From a virus: a stretch of DNA of 12,027 nucleotides. A program made the translations under genes and the position numbers. Position 1 is the first letter of the stretch; each line of letters begins with the position of its first letter. Of this stretch, positions 1-12,027 are shown piece by piece. Location: the IMG/VR virus record IMGVR_UViG_3300000293_000096, positions 1 through 12,027 of that record. The stretch is one strand, 5' to 3'. Under the pieces are notes generated by a model. That model did no database searches. It was not told the origin of the DNA and saw only the letters and a list, made by a program, of their open reading frames with translations.

Positions 1-54
1 GGACAAGAAAGAAAACCTTAACAAACAAAAATTTTAAAGTTGCAACGTTGCAAC
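1..54. repeat. Left inverted terminal repeat (ITR), 54 bp perfect
   Basis: Bases 1-54 (GGACAAGAAAGAAAACCTTAACAAACAAAAATTTTAAAGTTGCAACGTTGCAAC) are the exact reverse complement of 11974-12027. Identity stops at position 55 (C here, A expected from the right end). ITRs at both ends plus a protein-primed type PolB imply linear genome ends. Confidence 0.95.
39..54. repeat. Palindrome copy 1 (GTTGCAACGTTGCAAC), inner edge of left ITR
   Basis: Exact 16-mer that is its own reverse complement. It starts 38 bp from the genome end and is followed by 175 nt without a convincing CDS. Confidence 0.9.
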
Positions 55-170
55 CGAGGAAGCCCCGAGAGGAACACAACACTTTGCAACTCTTAAAGAT
101 TTATCAATATGGGTCAATGCACTCATGGAAAAAAGAGAAGCCCTTGAAAATATTGATATAACATTTGATG

Positions 171-199
171 TTACAACAAAACACACTGAGTTTTAATAA
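171..199 (+). promoter_or_regulatory. Weak candidate sigma-A-type promoter (TTACAA-N17-TAATAA) for the left-end operon
   Basis: TTACAA at 171-176, a 17-nt spacer, then TAATAA at 194-199. Both hexamers are imperfect, the region is AT-rich so chance matches are likely, and the -10 overlaps the loop and 3' arm of the hairpin at 182-208. Confidence 0.2.
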
Positions 200-208
200 C
201 TCAGTGTG
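182..208 (+). promoter_or_regulatory. Perfect 11-bp stem / 5-nt loop hairpin just upstream of the first gene
   Basis: CACACTGAGTT (182-192) pairs perfectly with AACTCAGTGTG (198-208), with loop TTAAT. No T-tract follows on the + strand. On the - strand it is followed by a T-rich run (complement of 170-181). It sits 21 nt upstream of the ATG at 230, immediately 5' of the SD, which is the same relative position the 16-bp palindrome occupies at other modules. Confidence 0.5.
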
Positions 209-229
209 CAGAAAGAGAGGTAAATAGAA

Positions 230-433
230 ATGAAAAAACTTTTTGTTTGTGAAATGTGTGGTAAGGTTTTTGACGATGAGCATGAAGCTAGGCGTTGTGA
301 AAGAAGTCATTTTATACCGCTGAATGTTACACCAAAGTTTTATGATGAGGGGAAAGTCATTCCCGAATTAGTAACAGTGAGTTTTGGAGTTCATGAAGAA
401 ATTTACAGACGTGTAAAGACAGATAATATATAA
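230..433 (+). CDS. Small zinc-finger protein (C-x2-C-x12-C-x3-H), putative DNA-binding or regulatory protein
   Basis: ATG at 230 with SD GAGAGG (215-220) and a 9-nt spacer; 67 aa. The N-terminus FVCEMCGKVFDDEHEARRCERSH has the spacing of a classical beta-beta-alpha C2H2 finger, with the first His replaced by Cys. First gene after the left ITR. Confidence 0.75.
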   Translation: MKKLFVCEMCGKVFDDEHEARRCERSHFIPLNVTPKFYDEGKVIPELVTVSFGVHEEIYRRVKTDNI

Positions 434-445
434 AGGGGTATACAT

Positions 446-607
446 ATGAAGATAACAATAAAATCAGTTGTGACAATTCTGCTAACAATTGTTTTTTGTC
501 TGTTATCACTTGCTGGAAAGATAACAAGTGAACAGTATATGACAGTTTTTACAACTGTTATTGCATTTTATTTCGGTACTCAGTTTTCAAAAAATGGCAG
601 GGTATAA
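446..607 (+). CDS. Small two-TM membrane protein, holin-like (not in the supplied ORF track)
   Basis: ATG at 446 with SD AAGGGG (433-438) and a 7-nt spacer; TAA at 605-607; 53 aa: MKITIKSVVTILLTIVFCLLSLAGKITSEQYMTVFTTVIAFYFGTQFSKNGRV. It has two hydrophobic segments and a short charged C-terminus, fills the gap between flanking genes exactly, and lies in the lysis cassette. Confidence 0.65.
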   Translation: MKITIKSVVTILLTIVFCLLSLAGKITSEQYMTVFTTVIAFYFGTQFSKNGRV

Positions 608-609
608 CA

Positions 610-819
610 ATGTGGGGCTCAATAATAGTTGCTGTCTTGTCTTTAATAGGTACGCTTATCGGAAGTTATTCGGGGTTTAAATTGACAGAATACAGAGTGC
701 AACAGTTAGAAAAACGAGTGGCAGAACACAACAATTTTGCAAGGCGTTTGCCAGTTGTTGAAGAGCAGATAAAGGTAATTAACCATAGATTAACAGATTT
801 AGAGGTGAGAGAAAAATGA
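610..819 (+). CDS. Holin-like protein with N-terminal TM helix plus coiled coil (BhlA/UviB-like architecture)
   Basis: ATG at 610, 69 aa. A hydrophobic N-terminus (WGSIIVAVLSLIGTLIGSYSGF) is followed by a charged helical region (EYRVQQLEKRVAEHNN...QIKVINHRLTDLE). The stop overlaps the endolysin start (ATGA at 816-819). The family assignment comes from remembered architecture only. Confidence 0.6.
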   Translation: MWGSIIVAVLSLIGTLIGSYSGFKLTEYRVQQLEKRVAEHNNFARRLPVVEEQIKVINHRLTDLEVREK

Positions 820-1484
820 CGTTTAAAGAATATATTTCTAAAAATTTAGGTAAATCAATTGATTTTGACGGAATTTACGGCTTTCAGTGTTGTGATTTAG
901 TCAATGATTATATGCAGAAATGTTTTAACGTTTTTACATATTACCCATATAATTTCAATGCTCAACAGTATTTCACTCGTTTCAATGAAGTGTCGGCACT
1001 TGTAAAGAATTTTACAAAAATTTCAAATACACCTGAGTTTGTACCAATGCAAGGTGACATTTGTGTTTTTAAGTCGTCTGACAATATCGGTCATATCTCA
1101 ATAGCAACAGGTGAGGGAAACACAAGTTATTTTTACAGTTATGACCAAAATTATAACGGACACAATTTTGTTGCAAGAGAAAAACACACTTACACTAATT
1201 TTTTAGGCGTATTAAGATACAAAGGTAATGCTCTTGACACAACAGGTCTAAAACGTGGTGATAATAATGCAGGGGTTTACGCCTACAAAATGTTACTAAA
1301 ACTAGCAAAAACTTGTAAAATAATTAGTACAAGTGTAGATTTTAACGGCATATATGGAAAAGGCACTGAAAAGGCTACAAATGAGATTTTGCGAAAACTG
1401 AAAAAGAAAGAAAACGGAATAGCAGGAGTAAAACTAATTAATGCACTTTATGAAGCTATTCTTGACAAAATAGTCAATTTTTAA
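816..1484 (+). CDS. Endolysin: N-terminal CHAP domain plus C-terminal PG_binding_1-like cell-wall binding domain
   Basis: SD GAGGTGA (802-808). The CHAP catalytic signature is Cys in GFQCCDLVNDY and His in GDICVFKSSDNIGHISIATGEGN. The C-terminus LKRGDNNAGVYAYKMLL...DFNGIYGKGTEKATNEIL...ENGIAGVKLINALYEAI fits the PG_binding_1 repeat pattern. Confidence 0.85.
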   Translation: MTFKEYISKNLGKSIDFDGIYGFQCCDLVNDYMQKCFNVFTYYPYNFNAQQYFTRFNEVSALVKNFTKISNTPEFVPMQGDICVFKSSDNIGHISIATGEGNTSYFYSYDQNYNGHNFVAREKHTYTNFLGVLRYKGNALDTTGLKRGDNNAGVYAYKMLLKLAKTCKIISTSVDFNGIYGKGTEKATNEILRKLKKKENGIAGVKLINALYEAILDKIVNF

Positions 1485-1572
1485 CATTCGGTAATACGCT
1501 TGTGAGCATTTAACAATACAACAGCAAATTGATAATAATTAACATTTATAAAATAAGAGTGCTAAACCGCTA

Positions 1573-1602
1573 TTGTTATCTAGCGTACATAGCTATTATA
1601 TA
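1573..1602 (+). promoter_or_regulatory. Candidate sigma-A-type promoter (TTGTTA-N18-TATATA) for the SSB-like gene
   Basis: TTGTTA at 1573-1578 and TATATA at 1597-1602, inside a 171-nt AT-rich intergenic region (1485-1655) that lacks the 16-bp palindrome. Identified by eye only; alternative -10 hexamers exist. Confidence 0.25.
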
Positions 1603-1655
1603 TTACGGTCACATAATATTGAACAAATTACAAAACATGGAAAGAGGTTTTAAAC

Positions 1656-1994
1656 ATGACAGGTTTTAATGTGAACATGAGCAAAAAGGATATTTTTAAC
1701 GCTAAAAGCGGAAGTATTTCAATCAAGACAGCGGAAGCAGGCGAGTGGCACACTGTTTCAGGGTGTGCGGTGGTAGAAAATGGAGGACTTGACAGGGACA
1801 AGAAGCCTTGTGATATAGGTTATATTGCAACAGATATCGGTGTGTTCGGCTTTTCGTCTAAAGTTTGCCTAGACCATATGGAAGAATTGGCAGATATTCT
1901 CAGCGATTGCCACAGTGACGGAGAGGAAGTAAAAGTTAGATTTGTAAAAGGCAAGTCAACGAACGGAGAATTTTATTCAATTCAGATACAGTAA
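1656..1994 (+). CDS. Putative single-stranded DNA-binding protein (phi29 p5-like)
   Basis: SD AAGAGG (1642-1647), 112 aa. From memory of phi29 p5 (124 aa): DIFNAKSGS resembles IFNAQTGGG, and YIATDIGVFGFSSKV...ELADIL resembles TIFAADGSLYSAISKT...DLIDLV. The C-terminal EEVKVRFVKGKSTNGEFYSIQIQ resembles ETFKVKVVQGTSSKGNVFFSLQLSL. Needs an alignment or HMM check. Confidence 0.5.
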   Translation: MTGFNVNMSKKDIFNAKSGSISIKTAEAGEWHTVSGCAVVENGGLDRDKKPCDIGYIATDIGVFGFSSKVCLDHMEELADILSDCHSDGEEVKVRFVKGKSTNGEFYSIQIQ

Positions 1995-2011
1995 ATAATA
2001 AAATCGGCATG

Positions 2012-2037
2012 ACGTGGTAACAAAAAAGTTGCCACGT
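2012..2037 (+). promoter_or_regulatory. Hairpin formed by an upstream arm (ACGTGGTAAC) and the left half of palindrome copy 2
   Basis: ACGTGGTAAC (2012-2021), loop AAAAAA, GTTGCCACGT (2028-2037): 10 bp with one G-T/G-U wobble. It lies 18 nt after the stop of the SSB-like gene. The variant C at 2033 is what allows pairing with G2016. Confidence 0.55.
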
Positions 2038-2043
2038 TGCAAC
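2028..2043. promoter_or_regulatory. Palindrome copy 2, variant GTTGCCACGTTGCAAC, 23 nt upstream of the portal start
   Basis: One substitution (A to C at motif position 6). It is followed directly by SD AAGAGGTGAG and the ATG at 2067. Confidence 0.85.
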
Positions 2044-2066
2044 CGATTGAAAGAGGTGAGAAAAAA

Positions 2067-3026
2067 ATGAGTTCAAAAGTAAAGCCGTGGGAGTGGAGTG
2101 AGTTTGGAGTATCAAACATAGACAAAACACAATTGACAAATTATTATTACAAAATGTTGTTAAATCGTGTTATCAATATGTTTACATGGAATAACTTACC
2201 AGATACCATTGACGAGCAAGTAATGAATTTTTGGCTATTTGTAACAGGGCGTGTTGTTTTTACTGAGTTCAACGGAAAACTATATGCACTAAATGGGAAT
2301 TACGGTGGTTATCCTAACGAGTATTATTTGCCTACAGAATTTATTGTTGCTAATCCAATTTTAGGAAGCAAAAATGTAAAGATAGATATTGACGGAGTTG
2401 TAATGTTCAATAGTGATACTGACAAATACCCTACACAAACAATGACAGGCGGTTTATATCCTATATTGACACTTACCGCAAATATGTTAGCTGACTGTGT
2501 AGTAACAATTTCCAGTGCGTTAAAAAATGGCAGAGTACAAACGGCATTTTTGTGTAAAGACGATACAGTGCGAATTGCAGGAGAAAAAGTTCTAAAACAG
2601 TTATATAATGGTAATCCAGCCGTTATGATTGACGACACAATTCTAAATTGTATCACGCCAATAAAAATGGCAGATAATACAAGTGTCGCTACAATTCTAC
2701 AACAGACAGTCGAAACGTATCAATTTTGGCTTGCAAATTTTTACAATTCAATCGGAGTAAATGCAAATTTTAACATGAAGAGGGAACGACTAAACACAGC
2801 AGAGGTCAATATTAATGATAGTGCGTTATTTGTAAATGTTATTAATATGTTGAATAACCGACAGCACGCGGTCAACAAAATTAATGCTATGTTTGGTACA
2901 AATATCACTGTTGAAATTTCCGATGAGTGGAAAGACTTGACAGAGGAAGAACCTACAGAAGAAGAACCTATAGAGGGAGAAAGTGAGGAAGAACCTAAAA
3001 ATGAAAAAGTTGATAACATTGAATGA
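2067..3026 (+). CDS. Portal / upper collar connector protein (phi29 gp10-like)
   Basis: I prefer ATG 2067 (SD AAGAGGTGAG at 2051-2060) over the track's TTG at 2037, which lies inside the palindrome; 319 aa. [40 protein letters not shown] parallels phi29 gp10 [57 protein letters not shown]...[16 protein letters not shown] parallels [20 protein letters not shown]...ACEKINELYGLNVKVK. The C-terminal tail is acidic, as in gp10. Confidence 0.85.
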   Translation: [319 protein letters not shown]

Positions 3027-3678
3027 ATGGGTGGAATTATTCCCCTCTATAAAGACTATTTTTGACAAGGTATCAACAGACTTAAAACTATTTACAATTT
3101 TTACATCTGCTGAGATGTTCTATTATTTTGCAGATAAGTTCGGTGAGCGTGATTTTTACAAGTATTATGATACTGAAAATGTGACAAATAATACTAATAT
3201 GGTGAAGCAGGCAAGCGACTATATAGCATTATATGGAAAATCACACAAATATGAGTATGATAAATTAGTTGATACTCTGTCATTGGAATATAATCCTATT
3301 GAAAATTATTCCATGACAGAAAAAGGAACAGATACAAGAACACCGAACATTACTCAGACAAACAAAGGAGTAAATACAAATACAGTCGGAGTTGATACGT
3401 CAATCACAACAGGAAAAACAACATTTGATAAATCAGACAGTTTTATTAATGACACAAAGACTACAAATACAGGTACAAACACCGATACACAAGATATAAA
3501 CACTACAGTTACAACAGCAGGAAACGAAAAAACTGTGCATGAATTTACAAGAAGTGGCAATATTGGAGTTACAACCTCTCAACAGATGATTGAAAGTGAA
3601 CGACAGTTAGCTATGTTTTCTGTAGTTGATTTATTCGTAAAGGCAATAGCCGATATTATTCTAATTGGTGTATATTAA
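3001..3678 (+). CDS. Putative lower collar / head-to-tail adaptor protein (gp11-position)
   Basis: ATG at 3001 with SD GAGGAAG (2985-2991); it overlaps the portal end by 26 nt; 225 aa. It lies immediately downstream of the portal, as gp11 does in phi29. A central Thr/Asn-rich stretch of about 70 aa (TDTRTPNITQTNKGVNTNTVGVDTSITTGKTT...TTVTTAGNEKT) is compatible with a long beta-hairpin tube insertion. The conserved-looking motif RSGNIGVTTSQQMIESE is near the C-terminus. The call rests on synteny and composition. Confidence 0.55.
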   Translation: MKKLITLNEWVELFPSIKTIFDKVSTDLKLFTIFTSAEMFYYFADKFGERDFYKYYDTENVTNNTNMVKQASDYIALYGKSHKYEYDKLVDTLSLEYNPIENYSMTEKGTDTRTPNITQTNKGVNTNTVGVDTSITTGKTTFDKSDSFINDTKTTNTGTNTDTQDINTTVTTAGNEKTVHEFTRSGNIGVTTSQQMIESERQLAMFSVVDLFVKAIADIILIGVY

Positions 3679-3681
3679 AAA

Positions 3682-3697
3682 GTTGCAACGTTGCAAC
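3682..3697. promoter_or_regulatory. Palindrome copy 3 (exact), 17 nt upstream of the start at 3715
   Basis: Exact GTTGCAACGTTGCAAC, 3 nt after the collar gene stop (TAA 3676-3678), preceded by an A-run and followed by SD GAGAGGA and the ATG at 3715. Confidence 0.9.
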
Positions 3698-3714
3698 TAG
3701 AAAGAGAGGAATAT

Positions 3715-4011
3715 ATGCAAAAAGTGAGAAGTCCTACATTTGCAGAGAATTACGTCAATCTTGCAAGAGCAGTTGTATTAAATGTAATTACTGACACTTT
3801 GCAACGTAAAGAAGATTTAACACACTATATTTTATATAGTGATGATTTTATGTTTTGGCTATCCCTTGCCAATTGGCTAGATTATGAAAATGTTATTAAA
3901 GATAAATTTTCACGTTTCAAAGGGATTGACAGAACAATAAGAAAAAAATTAAATACTTATTATCGCATAAAAGGCGAGGAAATGAAAGCGAGGAAAAATT
4001 ATGAAAGTTAA
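3715..4011 (+). CDS. Hypothetical protein; positional candidate for scaffolding protein (gp7 position)
   Basis: I prefer ATG 3715 (SD GAGAGGA at 3704-3710) over the track's TTG at 3691 inside the palindrome; 98 aa. It lies directly upstream of the major capsid gene and overlaps it by 11 nt, as phi29 gp7 (also 98 aa) precedes gp8. I recognise no sequence motif. Confidence 0.55.
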   Translation: MQKVRSPTFAENYVNLARAVVLNVITDTLQRKEDLTHYILYSDDFMFWLSLANWLDYENVIKDKFSRFKGIDRTIRKKLNTYYRIKGEEMKARKNYES

Positions 4012-5137
4012 GCAGATTGCAACTATTTTGAATGAAGCTCAGAAAGAAATTGTCGGTGAAACAGCCATAACAACGGAAAGTCTTGAAAATGTTGTTGATA
4101 TGGGTAAGCAGATACTTGAAGCAACAGATGTTGACAATTATGTCCGCAAGCTTATCGATAAAGTCGGACGTATGATTTTTGTTGACAGAGTTTATAACTC
4201 TACAGCCCCCGATATACTTGCCGACGGGTGGGAATATGGTTCAGCAATGCAGAAAGTTCGTTGCGAAATGCCAGATGCAGTTGAGAACGATAGCTGGAAG
4301 CTGACAAGCGGGCAGAGTTATGACCCATTTGTTTTTACCGCACCCGATGTACAGTCAAAATTTTATGACAGCAAGGTAACATATGAAGTGCAGATGTCAT
4401 TTACAGAAATGCAGGTAAAGAGTGCATTTAATTCTCCTACCGAAATGAATAGCTTTTTTGCTATGATTGAAAATCGTATCAGATTTAAGCTCACTCTGTC
4501 AAACGATATACTTAAAACACGCACTATCAATAATCTCATTGCGGAGAAGATACATAGTAAAAACAACGTTGTAAATCTTCTGACAATGTACAATGCAGAA
4601 TTTACAAAAACACTGACCGCAAGTCATGCACTTATGGACAAAGACTTTCTGAGATATGCTATCGGTAAAATAAAGGAGTATATTAAGTATATTCAGCGTC
4701 CGTCAACACTGTTTAATGACGGCGGATATACCACATTCACCCCCGAGAGTGACATGAAAATGGTTCTGCTGTCAAGATTTGTAAATACCGCTGAGGTGTA
4801 TTTGCAGAGCGACACATTCCACAATGACCTTGTAAAGCTGAGTGGCTATTCAGAAGTACCTTATTGGCAAGGTAGCGGAAATAGTGAGAATTTTGATTTT
4901 GCAGAAATTTCAAAAATTAATGTTACAACCGCAAGCGGTAACGCAGTTACTCAGGCAGGCATTATTGGCACTATTTTTGACAAGGACGCTTGTATGATTT
5001 GTAACGCAAATCCGAGAGTTACAAGTATTTACAACCCAAAGGGCGAGTACTGGAATTATTTCTATAAGTATGATGCAAGCTATTTCAATGATACAATGGA
5101 AAATTGTATAGTATTTATAGTCGCAGACGCTGGATAA
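4001..5137 (+). CDS. Major capsid protein (phi29 gp8-like, HK97 fold)
   Basis: SD GAGGA (3990-3994), 378 aa. The C-terminal IYNPKGEYWNYFYKYDASYFNDTMENCIVFIVAD parallels phi29 gp8 [34 protein letters not shown]. The N-terminal IATILNEAQKEIVGETA...VVDMGKQIL is typical of this capsid family. Confidence 0.85.
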   Translation: MKVKQIATILNEAQKEIVGETAITTESLENVVDMGKQILEATDVDNYVRKLIDKVGRMIFVDRVYNSTAPDILADGWEYGSAMQKVRCEMPDAVENDSWKLTSGQSYDPFVFTAPDVQSKFYDSKVTYEVQMSFTEMQVKSAFNSPTEMNSFFAMIENRIRFKLTLSNDILKTRTINNLIAEKIHSKNNVVNLLTMYNAEFTKTLTASHALMDKDFLRYAIGKIKEYIKYIQRPSTLFNDGGYTTFTPESDMKMVLLSRFVNTAEVYLQSDTFHNDLVKLSGYSEVPYWQGSGNSENFDFAEISKINVTTASGNAVTQAGIIGTIFDKDACMICNANPRVTSIYNPKGEYWNYFYKYDASYFNDTMENCIVFIVADAG

Positions 5138-5160
5138 CAGCATAACAAAATAATAGTTAA

Positions 5161-5191
5161 AACGTGGTAACTTGAAAATAGTTGCCACGTT
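5161..5191 (+). promoter_or_regulatory. Hairpin formed by an upstream arm (AACGTGGTAAC) and the left half of palindrome copy 4
   Basis: AACGTGGTAAC (5161-5171), loop TTGAAAATA, GTTGCCACGTT (5181-5191): 11 bp with one G-T/G-U wobble. It lies 24 nt after the capsid stop and has the same composite architecture as 2012-2043. Confidence 0.55.
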
Positions 5192-5196
5192 GCAAC
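5181..5196. promoter_or_regulatory. Palindrome copy 4, variant GTTGCCACGTTGCAAC, 19 nt upstream of the start at 5216
   Basis: Same A-to-C variant as copy 2. ATA/TAT flanks extend the symmetry. It is followed by SD AAGGGGTGA and the ATG at 5216. Confidence 0.85.
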
Positions 5197-5215
5197 TATA
5201 TAAGGGGTGATAAAA

Positions 5216-5707
5216 ATGCCAATTATAACAACTTATCAATGTTCGCAAGACGTGCGAACAATTCAAAAAACCTTAACAAATGCAATTGATTATAATTGTG
5301 AAATACTGGACACTATGAACAGTTTTTCACCACACATAAGATTATTTTGCACATCTGAAACGTTCAACGCAAATATGGCGTATATACCATTTTTTGATAG
5401 ATATTATCATATAATTTCGGCAGACGCTGAGAGTGCTGAAACAATTATTTTACAATGTGAATTTGATATTTTTACCTATTCAACAGCATTACTAAACAGC
5501 ACATTTCTAATAACTAGAAATGAAAACATCGGCAGTACATACATCCCCGATACAATGTTACCATTAAAAGGTAGTAAAGAAATGAAAGTAATTGAGTTTA
5601 CTGGCGGTGATTTTAACCTAGACACAGCCACAGCAAATAGTTACAATTTTGTGCTAAATGTGGCAGGCGGTGGCAGTAATCAGGGAACAGCGGAGAATGG
5701 GGGATAA
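5216..5707 (+). CDS. Structural protein resembling the N-terminal domain of the phi29 gp9 tail knob
   Basis: I prefer ATG 5216 (SD AAGGGGTG at 5202-5209) over the track's GTG at 5207; 163 aa. NMAYIPFFDRYYHIISADAESAETIILQCEFDIFTYSTALLNSTFLITRNE parallels gp9 residues [44 protein letters not shown]...ESFIVRE (pattern recalled from memory). The C-terminus is Gly-rich. Confidence 0.45.
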   Translation: MPIITTYQCSQDVRTIQKTLTNAIDYNCEILDTMNSFSPHIRLFCTSETFNANMAYIPFFDRYYHIISADAESAETIILQCEFDIFTYSTALLNSTFLITRNENIGSTYIPDTMLPLKGSKEMKVIEFTGGDFNLDTATANSYNFVLNVAGGGSNQGTAENGG

Positions 5708-5709
5708 AA

Positions 5710-7836
5710 ATGAAATTAAATGAAAACGTTTATGGAACGCCTACAGAAATTGAATTCCATGGTATGCCGATTAAAGTGGTAGGCAATGGCACTTTAAAAG
5801 ATTTAATTAATACCAATAAAATACAATTAAATAAAGAGTTCGACCAATCTATTATATACGCAGTTACTAACAATTCAGCATTAACAAATTATGCCGTACC
5901 ATACGGGAATAGCGTATTAAGACCAAAAATACAAAAATTTACAGCTACTAGCCCCATGGGATTAATAATGTGCTATGGTGGACTAACATCATCAATAGCA
6001 TTGGATTTTATGTACACTGATTATACTGCTCGTAATAATCCTTTTTTACCATATTTATCTATTGGCTATGGTGTAACATCATACGGAAATAACCCATACG
6101 GCGACGGCAATTATACACTTGTAAACCCTCATTTCGTTACTGGATATAAATGGACGGAAGTAAGGTGGTATATCACATTATATGTGACAAACATTTTAGC
6201 AATTACCAATTATAATGCGTTTGACCGCTGGAGTTTTAGAAGAGTATCATTGCAGGACTACAAAGATAATGTCGATAATGTTGCCACCAAAAACCCGCAC
6301 GTTGTCGGTGCAGATATTACACCAGTGCAACATTATATCGGTGGAACATATGAACCTGAATTTTGTCCTACATTCTATACGACTATTAATACATCATCAA
6401 ATAAAATCACCAATGACTATGCAAAAGATGTAAAAAATGATACATTTTATGTAAACCAAAACAGAAAACATTTTTTACTGGGGGCGGATTATCCGGGGCA
6501 ACACACGGCATCATTGCCTATGTATTTTGGAATTGATGATAAACTATTTGAAATGCACTCACATATTTTCAAAGAAGGTAATGACACATTTCAAACATAT
6601 GTGCCACTTTTAAAAGGCAGTCTTGACGATTTAATTAAAACATTTTGTTATTTAGGTATACCAATATCGACCAATCTTCAACACGCCCGAGATGATGATT
6701 TTGATAGTGAATATATTTATACTATGGGTATAAATGACAGCGGACTAACTGACGGAGATTTAAAAAACGGCAGTGATAACAATACAGTACCGCAAATTGA
6801 TTACGCCGATGATATTCTAACTAATAATAATTTTGGTGGTATTGACAGAGTAGACCCAAACAATTATACTGACAAAATAGACCTAAACAAGCCGACACTA
6901 TCAAATGTAAATGTATTTAACCGCAGTTTTGCCGTAACGTCAAATAACGTCAGACAGCTTGCCGATTTTCTTTGGAACGCAGACGAAACAAAATTTAATG
7001 AAATTGTAAAAGGTTTAGCTTTAATGGGTGAAAACCCCATGAACGGCATTATCGACCTGAGGTTATTTCCGTTTGACGTTGCATTAAAAAATTCAGCGAC
7101 AAATGCAGAGCATATTGTTATCGGTAGGACAAATACAGGCGTAAACGGAATAAAATTGACTGAAAATGTAAACAGCTTAATTGATTTAGGTGAATGTACA
7201 TTTTTTGAAAAATTCAAAAATTTTCTAGATTTTGAACCATACACAACAGCTCAATTATATATCCCATATATCGGAGTTGTACCAGTGTCTACGGCTGAAT
7301 TTATGGGGCATAAAATTTCCGCAAAAATGCTAGTTGACTATACGACAGGGGCAGGAACAGCAATTGTTTTTAAAGACGATATCCCATTCATTTACAAAAA
7401 TGGTGTTGTAGGTATAACAATTCCAATGACAGGGACGGACAGTGCAAGTTATGCTAATACAGTTGTGGGCAATGTTGTAAATGGTGCTATCGGTGGTATA
7501 TCTTCAATCGCTAGTAATAATATGGGTGGATTAATTGACAGTACAAAACAACTTTACAGTGGTTTTGCAACAGGGACTAATTATCAAGAAGCGAGTGCAA
7601 GTTCTCCGTCGGTTGCAACGTGGCAACCACAAAAATGTTATTTCATTATTGACAGACCTATTTTAAATGTACCAGATAATTATGGGCGTACTGTAGGCTA
7701 TGCTTGTGAAGTAACAGGAAAACTATCTGATTTTAAGGGCTTTACAGTTGTTAGCAATCCTGAAATTAATTTCAGATGTACAGACAGCGAAAGACAATAT
7801 ATAGTAAATATGTTACAAGGCGGTGTATTTGTATAA
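5710..7836 (+). CDS. Tail knob / distal tail tube protein (phi29 gp9-like C-terminal two-fifths; N-terminal part unassigned)
   Basis: SD GGGGGA (5699-5704), 708 aa. FEPYTTAQLYIPYIGVVPVSTAEFMGHKISAKMLVDYTTGAG resembles the gp9 [24 protein letters not shown]...KLKIQVRGSLG segment. The Gly/Ser/Ala-rich hydrophobic loop GNVVNGAIGGISSIASNNMGGLI resembles the gp9 membrane-active loop GMIGGGISAGASAAGGSALGM. The C-terminal KCYFIIDRPILNVPDNYGRTVGYACEV...DSERQYIVNMLQGGVFV resembles VYVIKKQLKAEY...FHKYGYKIN...DLQEIRTIFDNGITLW. Confidence 0.7.
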   Translation: MKLNENVYGTPTEIEFHGMPIKVVGNGTLKDLINTNKIQLNKEFDQSIIYAVTNNSALTNYAVPYGNSVLRPKIQKFTATSPMGLIMCYGGLTSSIALDFMYTDYTARNNPFLPYLSIGYGVTSYGNNPYGDGNYTLVNPHFVTGYKWTEVRWYITLYVTNILAITNYNAFDRWSFRRVSLQDYKDNVDNVATKNPHVVGADITPVQHYIGGTYEPEFCPTFYTTINTSSNKITNDYAKDVKNDTFYVNQNRKHFLLGADYPGQHTASLPMYFGIDDKLFEMHSHIFKEGNDTFQTYVPLLKGSLDDLIKTFCYLGIPISTNLQHARDDDFDSEYIYTMGINDSGLTDGDLKNGSDNNTVPQIDYADDILTNNNFGGIDRVDPNNYTDKIDLNKPTLSNVNVFNRSFAVTSNNVRQLADFLWNADETKFNEIVKGLALMGENPMNGIIDLRLFPFDVALKNSATNAEHIVIGRTNTGVNGIKLTENVNSLIDLGECTFFEKFKNFLDFEPYTTAQLYIPYIGVVPVSTAEFMGHKISAKMLVDYTTGAGTAIVFKDDIPFIYKNGVVGITIPMTGTDSASYANTVVGNVVNGAIGGISSIASNNMGGLIDSTKQLYSGFATGTNYQEASASSPSVATWQPQKCYFIIDRPILNVPDNYGRTVGYACEVTGKLSDFKGFTVVSNPEINFRCTDSERQYIVNMLQGGVFV
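7612..7627. repeat. Palindrome copy 5, variant GTTGCAACGTGGCAAC (reverse complement of the copy 2/4 variant), inside the tail-knob CDS
   Basis: In frame with CDS 5710-7836. GTT GCA ACG TGG CAA CCA encodes V-A-T-W-Q-P. It lies 208 nt upstream of the next start (7836). Confidence 0.8.
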
Positions 7837-8384
7837 TGAATGAACATTTTGCAAGCGGTTTAACAAATGAACAGTTAAAAGCTGAAATTTTAAGACAAGG
7901 GCGTAAAGCAAATTTACGCCTCAGTCAATTGAAAAAAAGTGGAATGTATAACAAAAACCCTATAATTTCTAGTAAATGGAATACTTTTTTACATGAAAGT
8001 AAGTTTTCAACAAAAAAGAATTTTTTCAAAACAGGTAGTAAAGGCGAAACAAGAACAGAATTGCTAAAACACTATGTGCAGATTAGACAGTTTTTAGGGC
8101 AAAAAACAACAGTAAAAGAAACAAAATCTATTATGTCAAAACACGCAAAACGTTTAAATATTTCTGAAGAAAATGTTGAAAGAGTTTTAACGATTTTCGG
8201 AAATAGTGGCATTGCTGGCAATTTACCTAACAGCGATTTTGTACAGCAATTTATTGCTGAAATGATTGAAAGTGGTTTTAATGATAATGAAATAAATTCA
8301 TTATTGAATACCCTTGAAAATTCAGCGAAAACACAAAATGAAATGTATGATTTAATGCGTGAACAAATGCAAATGTTAGAATAG
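7836..8384 (+). CDS. Candidate terminal protein (TP) for protein-primed replication; otherwise hypothetical
   Basis: The ATG at 7836 overlaps the tail-knob stop (TAATG); 182 aa. It lies immediately upstream of the PolB gene on the same strand, as gene 3 precedes gene 2 in phi29. The basic N-terminus LKAEILRQGRKANLRLSQLKKSGMYN resembles phi29 TP KAEYARLVKNTKAKIARTKKKYGVD, and the C-terminal region is helical and acidic. It is shorter than known TPs (about 230-270 aa). No priming residue is assignable by eye. Confidence 0.35.
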   Translation: MNEHFASGLTNEQLKAEILRQGRKANLRLSQLKKSGMYNKNPIISSKWNTFLHESKFSTKKNFFKTGSKGETRTELLKHYVQIRQFLGQKTTVKETKSIMSKHAKRLNISEENVERVLTIFGNSGIAGNLPNSDFVQQFIAEMIESGFNDNEINSLLNTLENSAKTQNEMYDLMREQMQMLE

Positions 8385-8399
8385 TTGCAACGTTGCAAC
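8384..8399. promoter_or_regulatory. Palindrome copy 6 (exact; extended to a 22-bp palindrome at 8381-8402), 24 nt upstream of the polymerase start
   Basis: ATAGTTGCAACGTTGCAACTAT is a perfect 22-bp palindrome. Its first G is the last base of the TAG stop (8382-8384) of the preceding gene. It is followed by TTTTC, SD GGGAG (8411-8415) and the TTG start at 8424. Confidence 0.9.
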
Positions 8400-8423
8400 T
8401 ATTTTCAAAAGGGAGTGTAATAG

Positions 8424-10562
8424 TTGATAAATGTAAATGATTTTGATTTTGATATTCTAAAAAATAGTAATTTACAAACAGTTACAACCCGAACGAAAGA
8501 TAATAAATATATTGAATATTACAACGCCCCATTTGCATTTGACATTGAAACAAGTTCCTTTTATGACGGAGAAAATAAAAGAGCGTGTATGTATATTTTT
8601 ATGTTTGCATTAAACGGAAATTATGTGTACGGCAGAACATGGAAAGATTTTGACTTTACATTGAATAAATTAAAAGAAGTATTACAATTAAATGAATACA
8701 GAAGAATTATAATATATATTCACAATTTAGGCTATGAATTTCAATTTTTAATCGGTCATGAACGCTTTAAAGACGTTTTCGCAAGAAACGCACGTCACCC
8801 TATTAAATGCACTATGAATGAATGTTTTGAATTAAAATGTAGTTTAATGCTCAGCGGTATGAGTTTAGCTAAAACAGCGGAAGACTTGACAAGCGTAAAA
8901 ATACAAAAACTAACAGGGGATTTGAATTATAAACTTTTAAGAACATGGAAAACAACACTAACAAAAGAAGAATTAGCATATTGTGAGCATGACGTTAAAA
9001 TTTTACATTATTTTATACTTGAAGAAATGACAAAAAATGATAATGATATAACAAAAATACCATTAACTAAAACAGGGTATGTTAGAAAATATTGCCAAAA
9101 CTACATTAAGAAACACACATATTATCCAAAATATAGAGAAAAAATAAAAAAGATAGCCCCAGTTGATAAAGATTTATTTTGTTTATTGCATAAAAGTTTT
9201 ATGGGAGGTTATACCCACGCAAACTATATGTATGTAGGAATGATAATGGAAAATGTTGCTAGTATTGATTTTACAAGTTCATATCCCTCCGTTATGATTA
9301 GAAAAAAGTACCCTATGCAACCATTTACAAAAGTTCACATAAAAGATTTAAAAGATTTTAGATACTGTATTAAAAATTATCCTTGCGTTTTTGAAGTGGA
9401 ATTAACTAACGTTATTGCTAAAAAATGTAATCACATCTTATCAAGGTCAAAATGTTCTGTATGTGATAATGCGGTTGTTGATAATGGCAGAATTGTATCG
9501 GCAGATAGAATATTTACATATTTTACAGATATCGACTTTAAAGACTTTGAGCAATTTTATTCTTATGAGCATTTGTCAATCGGTAAATTTTATACGTCTA
9601 GTTATGGTTATTTGCCTAAACAAATTATAGAATGTGCGTTAAAATTTTACAATGATAAAACAACACTAAAAGGCGTAAAAGGCAAGGAAGTTGAATATTT
9701 AGTCGGTAAAGGTATGTTGAATAGTTTATTCGGAATGTGCGTAACTAATCCAGTCAACGACAATATTATTTTTGACGGAAAAGAATGGAACACGGAAAGA
9801 AAAGATATAACGGAAGCGTTACAAGAAAATTACATAAAGAATAAAAAACAAGTGCTAGTATATCAATGGGGGGTATGGATTACGGCATGGGCAAGACATG
9901 AACTTTTTAAGGGTATTTTGGAAATTGATGAAGATGTTATTTATTGTGATACAGATAGTATAAAATTCTTAAACTATGAAAATTATAAAAACTGGATAAA
10001 TGAATATAATAAAAATTGTATTGATGAGATAAACAAAGCATTAAGCTATTATGAAATTGATTTGAATTTAGCTAAACCTAAAACAATTAAAGGTATTGAA
10101 AAACCTTTAGGAGTATGGGACTTTGAAGGAATTTACACAAGGTTTAAGACGTTAGGTGCAAAACGTTATGCGTATGAGCAAAACGGAAAATTTAATATTA
10201 CTGTTTCGGGACTAAATAAAAAGTGTGCTGTCCCGTATATAGTTGCAACGTTGCAACCGTTTGAATTTTTTGACAATGAAATGTATATTCCGAAAGAGTA
10301 TACAGGCAAAAATACATTGACGTATATTAATGAACCTTACAAAATTATGGTAAAAGACTATCAAGGAAATTATGCAGAAGTGGCGGAAAATAGTTACATA
10401 CATATGGAAGAGCAAGACTACAATATGAGTTTGTCGGAACAGTTTATATATTATTTAATGTGTGGTACAAATTTCGGTAGCGGTGCGAAAGAGCATACAT
10501 TATTTGAAAAAAGTCAAGAATTGGCTACAAATTTCTGGGAGTGTGATTTTAATGAAAAGTGA
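8424..10562 (+). CDS. Protein-primed family-B DNA polymerase (phi29 gp2-like)
   Basis: TTG start at 8424 with SD GGGAG and an 8-nt spacer. There is no in-frame ATG upstream of the ExoI motif. Motifs: ExoI FDIETS; ExoII HNLGYEFQF; ExoIII YCEHDVKIL; motif A DFTSSYPS; motif B KGMLNSLFGM; motif C YCDTDSI (identical to phi29); KxY LGAKRYAY. 712 aa, with room for TPR1/TPR2-type insertions. Confidence 0.95.
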   Translation: MINVNDFDFDILKNSNLQTVTTRTKDNKYIEYYNAPFAFDIETSSFYDGENKRACMYIFMFALNGNYVYGRTWKDFDFTLNKLKEVLQLNEYRRIIIYIHNLGYEFQFLIGHERFKDVFARNARHPIKCTMNECFELKCSLMLSGMSLAKTAEDLTSVKIQKLTGDLNYKLLRTWKTTLTKEELAYCEHDVKILHYFILEEMTKNDNDITKIPLTKTGYVRKYCQNYIKKHTYYPKYREKIKKIAPVDKDLFCLLHKSFMGGYTHANYMYVGMIMENVASIDFTSSYPSVMIRKKYPMQPFTKVHIKDLKDFRYCIKNYPCVFEVELTNVIAKKCNHILSRSKCSVCDNAVVDNGRIVSADRIFTYFTDIDFKDFEQFYSYEHLSIGKFYTSSYGYLPKQIIECALKFYNDKTTLKGVKGKEVEYLVGKGMLNSLFGMCVTNPVNDNIIFDGKEWNTERKDITEALQENYIKNKKQVLVYQWGVWITAWARHELFKGILEIDEDVIYCDTDSIKFLNYENYKNWINEYNKNCIDEINKALSYYEIDLNLAKPKTIKGIEKPLGVWDFEGIYTRFKTLGAKRYAYEQNGKFNITVSGLNKKCAVPYIVATLQPFEFFDNEMYIPKEYTGKNTLTYINEPYKIMVKDYQGNYAEVAENSYIHMEEQDYNMSLSEQFIYYLMCGTNFGSGAKEHTLFEKSQELATNFWECDFNEK
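10242..10257. repeat. Palindrome copy 7 (exact), inside the DNA polymerase CDS
   Basis: In frame with CDS 8424-10562. GTT GCA ACG TTG CAA CCG encodes V-A-T-L-Q-P, just after the KxY motif region. It lies 294 nt upstream of the ATPase start (10552). Confidence 0.85.
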
Positions 10563-11643
10563 ATACTATTCGCTTAAAAAGATTAATAAGTTAAATGCTC
10601 TATACAATTTGATTATAGGTCAACGTTCAAACGGAAAGACTTATGCAGTGTGTGAGCAGGAAATAAGGGGGTATTTTAAAGAGGGCTTTAAGCTTGCATA
10701 TTTAAGACGTTATGACGAGGAAATTATGCCTAAAAATATACAAAACTTATTTAAACCTCATTCAGCTTTAATTGAAAAATTATCTAATGGGCAATTTAAT
10801 AGCACTGTATACAAGAATAGAGAATTTTATCTATATAATACAAATACAGAGGAAAAAAGTGAAGAAAGTTTTTGCAAGTGTTTTTCTCTAAATGCGTGGG
10901 AACGTACAAAAGGTGCAGACAATGGTTACTTTAAATATATATTATTTGATGAATTTATGACACGTTCATTTTACCTTAATAATGAATTTGTTACATTCAC
11001 TAACTTATTGTCATCTATAATTCGTGATAGAGATGATACAGTTATTTACATGATAGCTAATACTGTCAATCAATATTGCCCATATTTTGCGGAGATGGGA
11101 TTAGGTAAAATTTCAGATATTAAACAGGGTGACTTGAAATTATTTACATACGGAGATAGCGAATTAACACTAGCGTTAGAATACTCAGACAGTAAAGGAC
11201 AAACTGGAAAAGTTAGTAAATATTTTGCGTTTGATAATCCCCAGTTAAAAATGATAACTACAGGTCAATGGGAAATAAAAAACTATCCTCACGCCCCTTT
11301 TAAAATTAAAAAAGAAGATATTGTATACAGGGCTTATATATTTTTTGATAATGATATTATTGCTTGCAATATTGTACATTATAACAATAGTGTATTTCTA
11401 TTTTTTAACATTCAAACAAAAACCGAACACCTTGATTTAAAAAAGAGAGTTGTATACAGTTTTGAAACAGACACTAATCCTTTACACGTTCAATCACTAG
11501 CGGAACAGCCTACAGATGTACATAAACTTATTAATAATTTAATAACATTTAATCGTGTGTTTTATTCAGATAATTCAGTGGGTGAAATTGTTAGAAATTG
11601 GATAAATGCACAAAGCAAACACGCTATTAGTATAAGGGCATAA
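10552..11643 (+). CDS. DNA encapsidation (packaging) ATPase (phi29 gp16-like)
   Basis: I prefer ATG 10552 (SD GGGAG at 10537-10541), which overlaps the polymerase end by 11 nt, over the track's 10462; 363 aa. Walker A is LIIGQRSNGKTYA (phi29 FVIGARGIGKSYA), followed by AYLRRY (phi29 IYVRRY). Walker B is YILFDEF (phi29 TIVFDEF). IYMIANTVNQYCPYF parallels CICLSNAVSVVNPYF. Confidence 0.9.
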   Translation: MKSEYYSLKKINKLNALYNLIIGQRSNGKTYAVCEQEIRGYFKEGFKLAYLRRYDEEIMPKNIQNLFKPHSALIEKLSNGQFNSTVYKNREFYLYNTNTEEKSEESFCKCFSLNAWERTKGADNGYFKYILFDEFMTRSFYLNNEFVTFTNLLSSIIRDRDDTVIYMIANTVNQYCPYFAEMGLGKISDIKQGDLKLFTYGDSELTLALEYSDSKGQTGKVSKYFAFDNPQLKMITTGQWEIKNYPHAPFKIKKEDIVYRAYIFFDNDIIACNIVHYNNSVFLFFNIQTKTEHLDLKKRVVYSFETDTNPLHVQSLAEQPTDVHKLINNLITFNRVFYSDNSVGEIVRNWINAQSKHAISIRA

Positions 11644-11647
11644 AAAT

Positions 11648-11682
11648 ATCCCCATGAGTTTTTTCTCATGGGGATTTGTTTT
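11648..11682. terminator. Bidirectional Rho-independent terminator between convergent genes
   Basis: ATCCCCATGAG (11648-11658) pairs perfectly with CTCATGGGGAT (11665-11675), with loop TTTTTT. TTGTTTT follows on the + strand. A-rich sequence (TAAAAAT) precedes the stem, which gives a T-run for the - strand. It starts 5 nt after the ATPase stop and abuts the stop of the - strand gene. Confidence 0.85.
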
Positions 11683-11959
11683 ATATAACGTATTCTCTTA
11701 ATACGGCTTGTATATTTGTCATTGTAGGTTCACAATTCATTCCATAAACATCTATTAGTAAATCACTTATATCATCATATCTTAAATAACCATTTGGCAT
11801 ACGCTCTTGATTATTAAAATACCATTTAACAGATACACACTCAACGACATTCATTATATTGTCGAATATAATCATAATAGGCTCATATAGATTTTTATAT
11901 TTGTTATATCTACCTACAGCCTTTTTAATTCCTTTAATCTCAGTACCATTAATTTTCAT
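11681..11959 (-). CDS. Hypothetical protein; the only minus-strand gene, read inward from the right ITR
   Basis: I prefer the ATG at 11959 (MKINGTEIKG..., SD-like GAAAGGA upstream) over the track's TTG at 11980 inside the palindrome; 92 aa. No motif recognised. It ends at the bidirectional terminator. Confidence 0.65.
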   Translation of the reverse strand: MKINGTEIKGIKKAVGRYNKYKNLYEPIMIIFDNIMNVVECVSVKWYFNNQERMPNGYLRYDDISDLLIDVYGMNCEPTMTNIQAVLREYVI

Positions 11960-11973
11960 AATTTTTCCTTTCT

Positions 11974-11989
11974 GTTGCAACGTTGCAAC
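11974..11989. promoter_or_regulatory. Palindrome copy 8 (exact), inner edge of right ITR, 14 nt upstream of the minus-strand gene start
   Basis: Exact GTTGCAACGTTGCAAC. On the - strand it is followed by AGAAAGGAAAAATT and then the ATG at 11959. Confidence 0.9.
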
Positions 11990-12027
11990 TTTAAAATTTT
12001 TGTTTGTTAAGGTTTTCTTTCTTGTCC
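11974..12027. repeat. Right inverted terminal repeat (ITR), 54 bp perfect
   Basis: The reverse complement of 11974-12027 is identical to 1-54. The inner 16 bp are the GTTGCAACGTTGCAAC palindrome. Confidence 0.95.

Follow-up and report, generated by a model that had tools for sequence, protein, structure and literature searches.

A small phi29-like phage contig is probably a coding-complete but end-truncated assembly from a widespread gut lineage

Here, we analysed the IMG/VR virus record IMGVR_UViG_3300000293_000096 (12,027 bp; this whole stretch of DNA is called the window), which had been read from its sequence as an apparently complete, unusually small linear phi29-like phage genome bounded by a perfect 54-bp inverted terminal repeat (ITR). 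Comparison with its relatives suggests, at a probability of about 85%, that the window is a coding-complete but end-truncated assembly belonging to a widespread phi29-like lineage of the gut that has no cultured or named member.

Terminal repeat and contig ends

Bases 1-54 of the window are the exact reverse complement of bases 11974-12027, position 55 is the first mismatch (57 nt at 98% identity if it is included) and the match lies flush with both window ends. A match of this length cannot arise by chance, and the perfect inverted repeat is present just as the original prediction described it. Its equation with the whole ITR did not hold, as the window ends fall within the 330-415 bp ITR of the relatives, which makes the 54-bp repeat a stub left by the assembler:

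1..54, plus strand: left ITR stub, comprising the innermost 54 nt of an ITR of 330-415 bp; not a genome terminus
11974..12027, minus strand: right ITR stub, reverse complement of the left stub

The left stub is homologous to approximately positions 340-394 of the 401- and 410-bp ITRs of L002 and L004 (compared contigs carry numbers with the prefix L). Homology past both window ends was found in more than 20 relatives, in which it extends 181-351 nt outward toward a common terminus: 339 nt in L002, 337 nt in L004 and 351 nt in L039, an NCBI assembly colinear with window positions 426-12027 at 90.5% identity, whose right end, 351 nt beyond the window, reads AAAGTACCCCC. Positions 246-182 of L005 match window positions 11963-12027 at 100% identity (65 nt) and L005 continues 181 nt farther out, being truncated itself. 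This outward extension therefore indicates that the window lacks approximately 340 nt per end and that the true genome measures about 12.7 kb. The claim of a complete genome had to be given up, since relatives run 337-351 nt farther out to a common AAAGTA terminus; the contig is a fragment of a larger genome, an outcome that the original prediction had itself named as speaking against completeness.

The position of the terminus is defined by several genomes. Among 18 IMG/VR relatives, perfect terminal inverted repeats vary in length between 55 and 410 bp (55, 95, 99, 99, 119, 276, 327, 354, 364, 385, 385, 401, 403 and 410 nt), and the long ones all begin at, or at most 10 nt from, AAAGTACCCC. 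Exact starts at this sequence were found at both ends of L007 and in L012, L015 starts there with two additional bases and L039 ends there too; at least ten independent contigs converge on it outside the window ends. In L010, the sequence TCCGATCT, which we take to be an Illumina adapter tail, is joined directly to AAAGT at both ends and therefore marks the physical end of the DNA. A MAFFT alignment of all ends, anchored on a 16-bp palindrome at the inner edge of the ITRs (see below), gave a distance of 321-415 nt from the true end to this palindrome in relatives versus 38 nt in the window, and every aligned relative runs outward from the base homologous to window position 1. Outside this position the relatives read ...CATTGACA-N17-TGGTATACTATATATAGAGTTAAGGGAGAG/GACAAGAAAG..., followed by 25-nt and 8-nt tandem repeats and then the terminus, i.e. 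their outer ITR passes TTGACA-N17-TGgTATACT and tandem repeats before the common end is reached. If the window is truncated, reads crossing its position 1 outward would enter ...TATACTATATATAGAGTTAAGGGAGAG and ...GAGTTAAGGGAGAG / TATACT / TTGACA. The terminal repeat of phi29-like phages is found in the relatives, whose ITRs starting with AAAGTA span 327-410 bp, and the window retains the inner 54 nt of it; its contig ends are not the physical termini expected of a complete linear genome.

Complete relatives also have, in their outer ITR, 8-nt repeats, TAAAGTGC and GTAAAGCG, which echo the AAAGT terminus (L007 52-80 and 104-127; L015 120-200), and 25-nt repeats GCGAGTACAAATAATTGGAC... whose copy number differs among genomes; both could be iterons of the origin or iterons bound by a protein. 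In the complete relative L007, two tandem promoters per ITR, facing inward, account for the four best sigma-70 matches of the whole genome, and a sigma-70 match scan of the window found no ITR promoters of this type.

A second assembly, the Logan contig L001 (run ERR3986694; 11,979 bp), is identical to window positions 25-12003 and carries an 'ITR' of 30 nt, i.e. k-1 for k = 31, which we take to be the k-mer size of Logan assemblies. With 30 nt there and 54 nt here, the stub length therefore tracks the assembler and not biology. We propose that the two ITR copies would collapse in the de Bruijn graph and that the contig of the unique region would retain a k-dependent stub of the repeat. ITR lengths equal to the assembler k or k-1 were observed in many public 'ITR-complete' contigs of this phage group: exactly 141 nt in the MEGAHIT 'k141_' contigs L025 and L054, 30 nt in L001, 55 nt in L008 and L022, and 99 nt in L014 and L017. 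L022 is the published isolate AD70P2, whose 55-bp ITR raises the same k-mer suspicion, which we note as a suspicion only. Finding a perfect ITR at each end of a contig is commonly regarded as showing that a linear genome is complete, and this is misleading here: the apparent repeat measures 30, 54, 55, 99 or 141 nt depending on the assembler k, the real one about 390 bp, and the sequence missing from such contigs holds the replication origins and the only strong promoters. As ITR length follows the assembler k, metagenome-based genome-size records and ITR catalogues of phi29-like phages are therefore biased low, with catalogued ITR lengths and genome sizes probably underestimated systematically. 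Adapter remnants, presumably Illumina TruSeq or Nextera tails, were also seen joined to phage sequence at contig ends of the IMG/VR records L010, L059, L085, L090, L097 and L103; such remnants mark true molecule ends and could be mined for the termini of linear phages.

At its left end, the window differs from most relatives by a further loss of sequence:

55..196, plus strand: remnant (3' part) of a left-end early gene, first approximately 170 codons deleted; 216-227 amino acids (aa) in relatives

Most relatives have AGAAAGGA behind the ITR palindrome and then a gene of 216-227 aa with a second palindrome copy inside it, whereas in the window the ITR palindrome is joined straight to the sequence following this second copy. 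The junction of the deleted form, at 54/55 in the window, runs from the palindrome to CGAGGAAG, that of the full-length form from the palindrome to AGAAAGGA at the left end. Window positions 40-70 are identical to the context of the internal second palindrome in L031 from position 528, and the palindrome-to-palindrome distance in L031 is 524 nt (L031 3-527 being the part absent from the window). Judged from this comparison, a deletion of about 524 nt between two 16-bp palindrome copies has removed most of the left-end early gene. The Logan contig, at k = 31, crosses the deletion junction, which is therefore present in reads. The size of 12,027 bp could accordingly not be upheld: the true length is about 12.7 kb, and even this is a deletion variant of a genome type of 13.15-13.3 kb.

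The left-end gene product matches phrog_15077, a family of no known function, and the region differs among relatives (L039 has three other small genes, L016 lacks the region), so that the gene is probably accessory. The label DUF3102 given to it in GenBank third party annotation (TPA) was rejected, as Pfam gave no match even at E up to 10, and its AlphaFold2 (AF2) model, at a predicted local distance difference test score (pLDDT) of 45.7, was unusable for fold assignment. A hairpin of 11-12 bp at 182-209 lies across the stop codon of the gene remnant and has a T-run on the minus strand only; a role in halting leftward transcription or in marking the 3' end of an RNA is conceivable.

Lineage and gene content

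The lineage of the window is undescribed yet abundant in public assemblies. The IMG/VR uncultivated virus genomes (UViGs) L002-L019, the GenBank TPA records DAU98297.1 and DAW22704.1 ('Caudoviricetes sp.') and the NCBI record JAIFIH010001734.1 share its gene order and palindromes, and the 18 IMG/VR relatives are 93-97% identical in the family B DNA polymerase (PolB) and 84-90% at the nucleotide level over 87-91% of the window. They differ in that most public relatives keep the left-end gene and measure 12.4-13.4 kb, the complete ones 13.15-13.3 kb with full ITR. The relatives derive from gut metagenomes. More than 555 relatives of the window PolB are present in IMG/VR, the best 80 of which include 51 contigs of at least 10 kb with a median of 12,000 bp, and clusters at 90% identity count 468 members for PolB and 441 for the portal, including GenBank TPA proteins from metagenome-assembled genomes (MAGs).

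Megablast against 50,697 phage records gave no match and sensitive blastn against phage records aligned at most 7% of 8 kb at 65-72% identity. The genus threshold of the International Committee on Taxonomy of Viruses (ICTV) is approximately 70% nucleotide similarity, and by nucleotide similarity the window falls outside the genus Astrithrvirus. Core proteins are 29-45% identical to those of the nearest isolates, which belong to Astrithrvirus and its allies (the Astrithrvirus group: Salmonella phages astrithr, Astrid and assan, Pectobacterium DU_PP_III, Acinetobacter Phanie, Enterobacter Entb_47 and Vibrio K58 g2; 10.4-11.9 kb). The uncultured L059 and L060 have the gene order of the window, with a major capsid protein (MCP) 60% and a PolB 50% identical, and a different phi29-like lineage of 11.8 kb (L041-L050) has another genome layout, a single-stranded DNA-binding protein (SSB) gene recognised by Pfam and no palindromes. 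The proposed distinct lineage is hence indeed remote from described phages, yet it had been seen before, in the public clusters of 468 and 441 members.

The size class, which had been called rare, is well populated. Isolates of 10.4-12.3 kb (Astrithrvirus, Phanie, DU_PP_III, Entb_47, Vibrio K58 g2 and Amedibacillus AD70P2/P3) and human faecal contigs of 12-14 kb were matched by tblastn, and AD70P2/AD70P3 (Guelinviridae, 12.2-12.3 kb) as well as the human faecal MT836125 (12.7 kb) share the size class of the window. According to a 2024 review, phi29-like phages are the smallest known tailed viruses, with many human-metagenome genomes of 12-14 kb and clusters 'typically about 11-14 kbp' (PMC11476376). 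The GenBank TPA genomes of the BK/DA series that it names include ctsL82 (13,451 bp) and ctjx911 (13,168 bp).

The 15 open reading frames (ORFs) of the window agree with those listed in the original prediction and comprise a phi29-type virion, PolB and a lysis cassette; nearly all genes lie on the plus strand, with one small minus-strand gene at the right end. Pfam and PHROG matches confirmed a gene set of phi29 type. The reading as the linear genome of a phi29-like podophage, with a protein-primed-type polymerase, is supported, and with its virion, replication and lysis genes present the window is coding-complete or nearly so. Gene links given below were obtained by a local iterative profile search over the ORFs of the fetched genomes.

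230..433, plus strand: Cys-rich zinc-ribbon-like protein, 67 aa; DUF7128 match weak, under the Pfam cut-off
446..607 (53 aa) and 610..819 (69 aa), plus strand: two small membrane proteins with hydrophobic segments; phrog_13256 and phrog_1863
816..1484, plus strand: CHAP-domain endolysin; PF05257 3.4e-06, endolysin PHROGs down to 2e-30
1656..1994, plus strand: candidate SSB, phi29 gp5-like, 112 aa; iterative profile to AD70P2_00009 and phi29 gp5, 2e-05
2067..3026, plus strand: portal / upper collar connector (phi29 gp10); PF05352 3.9e-18, phrog_2038 2.4e-39
3001..3678, plus strand: candidate lower collar, 225 aa; homologous to the post-portal gene of L041, MT836125 and AD70P2
3715..4011, plus strand: candidate scaffolding protein, 98 aa; position directly upstream of the MCP gene and size as phi29 gp7 and Cp-1 orf8
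4001..5137, plus strand: MCP, phi29 type; PF25622 2.4e-53
5216..5707, plus strand: N-terminal part of the tail knob as a separate gene, 163 aa; profile links to Phanie gp9, astrithr gp09 and AD70P2_00005
5710..7836, plus strand: C-terminal part of the tail knob, 708 aa; profile links to Phanie gp10, astrithr gp10 and AD70P2_00005
7836..8384, plus strand: candidate terminal protein, 182 aa; directly upstream of PolB
8424..10562, plus strand: PolB, protein-primed type; PF03175 1.8e-14, phrog_1907 7e-62
10552..11643, plus strand: DNA encapsidation ATPase of gp16 type; PF05894 4.4e-16
11648..11675, no strand: strong bidirectional intrinsic terminator (stem of 11 bp, a T-run on either strand) between the convergent ATPase and right-end genes
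11681..11959, minus strand: right-end gene, 92 aa; read inward from the right ITR, ribosome-binding site (RBS) after the right ITR palindrome

The capsid, connector and ATPase matches all lie above the Pfam cut-offs, i.e. the core proteins are of phi29 type, and the PolB motifs DIET, NSLFG, YCDTDS and KRY are visible in the translation. For the other roles, hhalign comparison with phi29 and Streptococcus phage Cp-1 was weak or negative, and the tail-knob, collar, terminal-protein and SSB assignments therefore rest on homology to the Astrithrvirus group, synteny and the structural analysis in PMC11476376. Clade families gave no hhalign signal against the phi29/Cp-1 terminal protein, scaffold, gp9, gp4, gp6, gp16.7, gp17 and gp1, and phmmer searches of the 708-aa, 225-aa and 182-aa proteins against the PDB returned nothing below E 0.06. 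The gene that had been called SSB-like gained a link to phi29 gp5, and this link is weak (hhalign probability 41%, E 2.9e-4); in the L041 lineage, the Pfam SSB gene stands at its position. Similarly, the collar assignment of the 225-aa protein was backed by synteny and by homology to the post-portal gene, its match to phi29 gp11 being weak (40% probability over 23 columns). We infer a scaffolding role of the 98-aa protein only by analogy of position and size, as it has no sequence similarity to the phi29/Cp-1 scaffold by hhalign.

The proposed tail knob was confirmed as two genes, with homology to the tail knob that Phanie and astrithr likewise encode in split form; Phanie gp9 is annotated as 'putative tail knob protein', and AD70P2_00005 is a fused protein of 439 aa. 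A split tail knob has been described for the Astrithrvirus group (PMC11476376). The centre of the 708-aa gene (approximately 5722-6852) does not align with most clade members and is probably a variable receptor-binding region. Window positions 5348-7845 were found to match L041 4367-6868 at 86% nucleotide identity, including this variable centre, which looks like a horizontal exchange of a receptor-binding module and would imply a host shared with the L041 lineage.

Homologues of the 182-aa protein are encoded just before PolB in L041, astrithr, Phanie, Vibrio K58, HM2 and AD70P2 (seven lineages with the window), which makes it a candidate for the terminal protein; one homologue is named 'Regulatory protein' in GenBank TPA. 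A counterpart of the terminal protein has been reported in the Astrithrvirus group (PMC11476376). Homologues of the 67-aa Cys-rich protein occur in 16/24 clade genomes and in none of the other genomes compared, those of the 92-aa right-end gene in 24/24 clade genomes and in 4/18 other genomes without palindromes, including the L041 lineage. Both PHROGs matched by the small membrane proteins are without known function, and the position upstream of the endolysin makes these proteins putative holins or lysis accessory proteins. A tRNA scan of the window found none, and no Rfam match to a packaging RNA (pRNA) was obtained at E up to 1 in the window or three complete relatives. A pRNA is documented only for phi29 and related Bacillus phages (PMC11476376) and is therefore no defining trait of the wider phi29-like group.

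Taken together, the lineage would be one of virulent-type podophages with a linear genome of about 12.7 kb, the ITRs of which (about 330-415 bp) begin with 5'-AAAGTA like the phi29 terminus. Replication is predicted to be protein-primed from the AAAGTA ends by PolB, with the 182-aa protein as likely terminal protein and the 112-aa protein as putative SSB. Host RNA polymerase would fire from two strong promoters per ITR and read inward, and a long rightward and a short leftward transcription unit would meet at the terminator 11648-11675. The particle is presumably a minimal phi29-type one of portal, small lower collar, MCP, two-gene tail knob and gp16 ATPase, without recognisable pRNA. The CHAP endolysin would achieve lysis together with the two small membrane proteins, as would suit a Gram-positive host among the Bacillota. 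Among named cellular proteins, those of Ruminococcus sp. and Eubacteriales MAGs are the nearest homologues of the endolysin. Extended -10 promoters and GGAGG-type RBSs, which we take to be typical of Bacillota, together with the endolysin homologues and the gut source therefore point to a Gram-positive Bacillota host.

Could the window nevertheless be read differently? We consider it very improbable that its 12,027 bp are the complete genome, the 54-bp repeat being the true ITR with the terminal protein at GGACAAG. The perfect repeat flush with both contig ends and the presence of all virion, replication and lysis genes would suit this explanation, but the outward continuation of every relative, the convergence of at least ten independent contigs on one terminus 321-415 nt out and the 30-nt 'ITR' of the second assembly, which shows a length set by the assembler, argue against it; moreover, such ends would lack the ITR promoters, the sole strong promoters of complete relatives. 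Less remote, though still improbable, is a defective or helper-dependent state, in which the window would be a deletion mutant needing a full-length co-infecting relative or the whole lineage would depend on a helper like Phanie. The 524-nt deletion, found in this sample only and in a left-end region otherwise occupied in relatives, is in line with such a state, as are the split tail knob and the lack of fibre genes common with Phanie, which is reported to depend on a helper myophage (PMC11476376, citing Pourcel et al.). On the other side, the variability of the left-end region suggests accessory content, the genome was abundant enough for single-contig assembly twice, and the central module of the 708-aa tail protein is exchangeable, as is typical of receptor-binding proteins. 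For a circular or concatemeric artefact, or a piece of a much larger phage or plasmid genome, we found no supporting point: the terminal repeat is inverted and not direct, more than 20 related contigs of 12.4-13.4 kb from different assemblers share gene order and terminal sequence, and no relative was found inside bacterial genomes (GTDB representatives), which makes the probability of this explanation practically negligible.

A coding-complete, end-truncated assembly thus remains our preferred reading, against which several points have to be weighed. The outer ITR of the sampled strain is deduced from relatives (84-100% identity at the ends) and not from its reads. The 54-nt stub fits a node-centric graph with k = 55, yet SPAdes-type output at k = 55 would give 55 nt. 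The deletion junction is absent from IMG/VR and JGI metagenome contigs and was seen in this sample only, and the deleted form could be a defective minority variant. By hhalign, the 182-aa protein has no similarity to the phi29/Cp-1 terminal proteins, and its AF2 model (one of five models acceptable, pLDDT 80.8) is helical and without any PDB match with E < 1 in Foldseek. Finally, a search of 185,579 GTDB representative genomes for PolB relatives yielded neither a match nor a host.

The dispersed palindrome and its relation to parS

The palindrome at the inner edge of both ITRs recurs along the window:

39..54, 2028-2043, 3682-3697, 5181-5196, 7612-7627, 8384-8399, 10242-10257 and 11974-11989, no strand: 16-bp palindrome GTTGCAACGTTGCAAC, eight copies by motif count

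In the form GTTGC[A/C]ACGT[T/G]GCAAC, eight copies are present in the window versus 0 expected from shuffles. Two copies lie within coding sequence, and copies stand 10-26 nt upstream of the starts of the portal gene, the 98-aa gene (then MCP), the N-terminal tail-knob gene, PolB and the right-end gene. Among 22 genomes, the palindrome is conserved at 95-99.7% compared to 78-93% for its flanks, i.e. it is under nucleotide-level constraint, even inside coding sequence. Its variants in these genomes are one-sided and never compensatory. A strong RNA hairpin was rejected in view of this lack of compensatory variants and core energies of -5 to -8 kcal/mol at 5/8 sites (z-scores -1 to -5); LacI/cre, LexA and extracytoplasmic function (ECF) promoter readings were dropped, as they did not fit the spacing.

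Other lineages of small phi29-like phages carry repeated palindromes of their own. MT836125 (L023; PolB 36% identical) has a 14-bp palindrome, GTTCGACGTCGAAC, eight times (829, 3430, 5288, 6599, 8051, 8933, 11001 and 12250), and in several genes it immediately precedes the RBS and ATG; its half-site CGTCGAA resembles the Spo0A box TGTCGAA. Many other lineages carry GTTTCACGTGAAAC, the canonical chromosomal parS that is bound by ParB/Spo0J according to the literature. Phage phi29 has five parS sites and uses Spo0J to segregate its genome into the prespore (PMC2731898). We found TGTTTCACGTGGAACA four times in phi29, with one copy directly after the stop codon of the ATPase gene, and likewise in L070, i.e. 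one parS copy lies between ATPase stop codon and terminator in L070 and phi29. Perfect canonical parS, TGTTTCACGTGAAACA, was observed, often in multiple copies, in approximately half of the small phi29-like contigs compared, and two isolates, AD70P2 and Clostridium phage HM2, have it as well; examples are L070 (181, 1294, 4236, 5579 and 12723), L059 (716, 745 and 5595), L022 (8621), L052 (10529) and L075. L059, the closest relative found outside the clade that shares the gene order of the window, has canonical parS at the MCP/tail-knob intergenic site and at the left-end pre-gene site, where the window has its palindrome.

For canonical parS, TGTTNCACGTGAAACA, the window contains no site within three mismatches. 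Its palindrome consists of two half-sites, GTTGCAAC/GTTGCAAC, one base longer than GTTTCAC, and a GTT..ACGT..AAC frame is common to it, canonical parS and the repeated palindromes of other lineages. Hence, a dispersed and conserved palindrome of 14-16 bp at parS-equivalent positions is present in the window, and the parS consensus itself is not. Neither a ParB-like gene in the phage nor any small window protein co-occurring with palindrome-bearing genomes was found.

The exact 16-mer was also encountered, in multiple copies, within conjugative or mobilisable elements of MAG contigs labelled Treponema and Erysipelotrichaceae. L146 has six copies in 4 kb (1637-5681) beside integrase, topoisomerase, HicB and MobL relaxase genes in an integrative/conjugative region of a low-GC MAG, and single copies in L143 (1741-1756) and L184 (5500-5515) lie beside genes for a MobL relaxase and a type IV secretion system coupling protein. 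A genome-wide palindrome scan with at least 120 matches returned scattered single matches, and among the matches listed no taxon apparently uses it as a chromosomal centromere.

By analogy with parS, a dimeric DNA-binding protein, probably encoded by the host, may use the palindromes as docking or operator sites, an interpretation to which we give about even odds. The more specific proposal that they are diverged relatives of parS, by which the phage would hijack host ParB/Spo0J with a switched site specificity shared with conjugative elements of low-GC gut bacteria, is by comparison doubtful. Transcription-linked hairpins, e.g. antisense terminators, or RNA elements are the alternatives. If host-factor docking is true, many small gut phi29-like phages carry such sites, and gut Bacillota might partition or silence a nominally lytic genome or trap it in their spores; if confirmed, this would extend the spore-entrapment strategy of phi29 to abundant gut phages.

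Comparison with known systems

With phi29 (Bacillus, Salasmaviridae, 19,282 bp), the window shares the families of MCP, connector, gp16 ATPase and protein-primed PolB, and its 6-bp ITR AAAGTA is the terminus of the relatives of the window. The phi29 terminators at 17262-17301 after gene 16 have the arrangement of the window terminator at 11648-11675, which mirrors TD1, and both genomes have dispersed 16-bp palindromic sites, in phi29 the five parS sites. In contrast to phi29, the genome of the window is about 6.5 kb smaller, its ITR measures about 390 bp instead of 6 bp, its tail knob is split and its palindrome is not canonical parS; a pRNA was not detected, genes for head fibre, appendage (gp12) and gp13 are missing, and hhalign found no p4/p6 homologues in the window. 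Phage Cp-1 (Streptococcus, 19,343 bp) resembles it in its long ITR (236 bp), with early promoters that point inward from either end, and in a terminal protein gene directly upstream of PolB, where the window has its candidate, but is much larger, and similarity of its terminal protein, collar and scaffold to the window is undetectable.

AD70P2/AD70P3 and MT836125 agree with the window in their gut or sewage source and in a Bacillota host, which for the window is predicted, as well as in homologous SSB-like, collar and tail-knob proteins, and MT836125 shares the outer-ITR sequence TTTCCCACTTTAACGTGGTAAAGTG with the window's clade. Their core proteins are only 28-36% identical to those of the window (26-36% for MT836125 and 28-34% for AD70P2 over all four), both lower than those of the Astrithrvirus group, and the tail knob of AD70P2 is one fused gene.

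The Astrithrvirus group is the best isolate match for all four core proteins (PolB 40-43%, MCP 41-45%, ATPase 37-40%, portal 29-32%), with the ATPases of astrithr and Phanie both 39% identical to that of the window. It has in common with the window the two-gene tail knob, a small post-portal collar gene and a gene of approximately 180-200 aa upstream of PolB, along with the size class and a long ITR (171 bp in Phanie). The group differs in having no usable nucleotide similarity, replication and structural modules in swapped order and no repeated palindrome, and its hosts are Gram-negative, whereas the CHAP endolysin of the window has Clostridia-like relatives. The lineage of the window would thus represent a branch of Gram-positive type whose distance from the Gram-negative Astrithrvirus group is smaller than that of the Amedibacillus phages, a position that bears on how this phage group crossed between host types.

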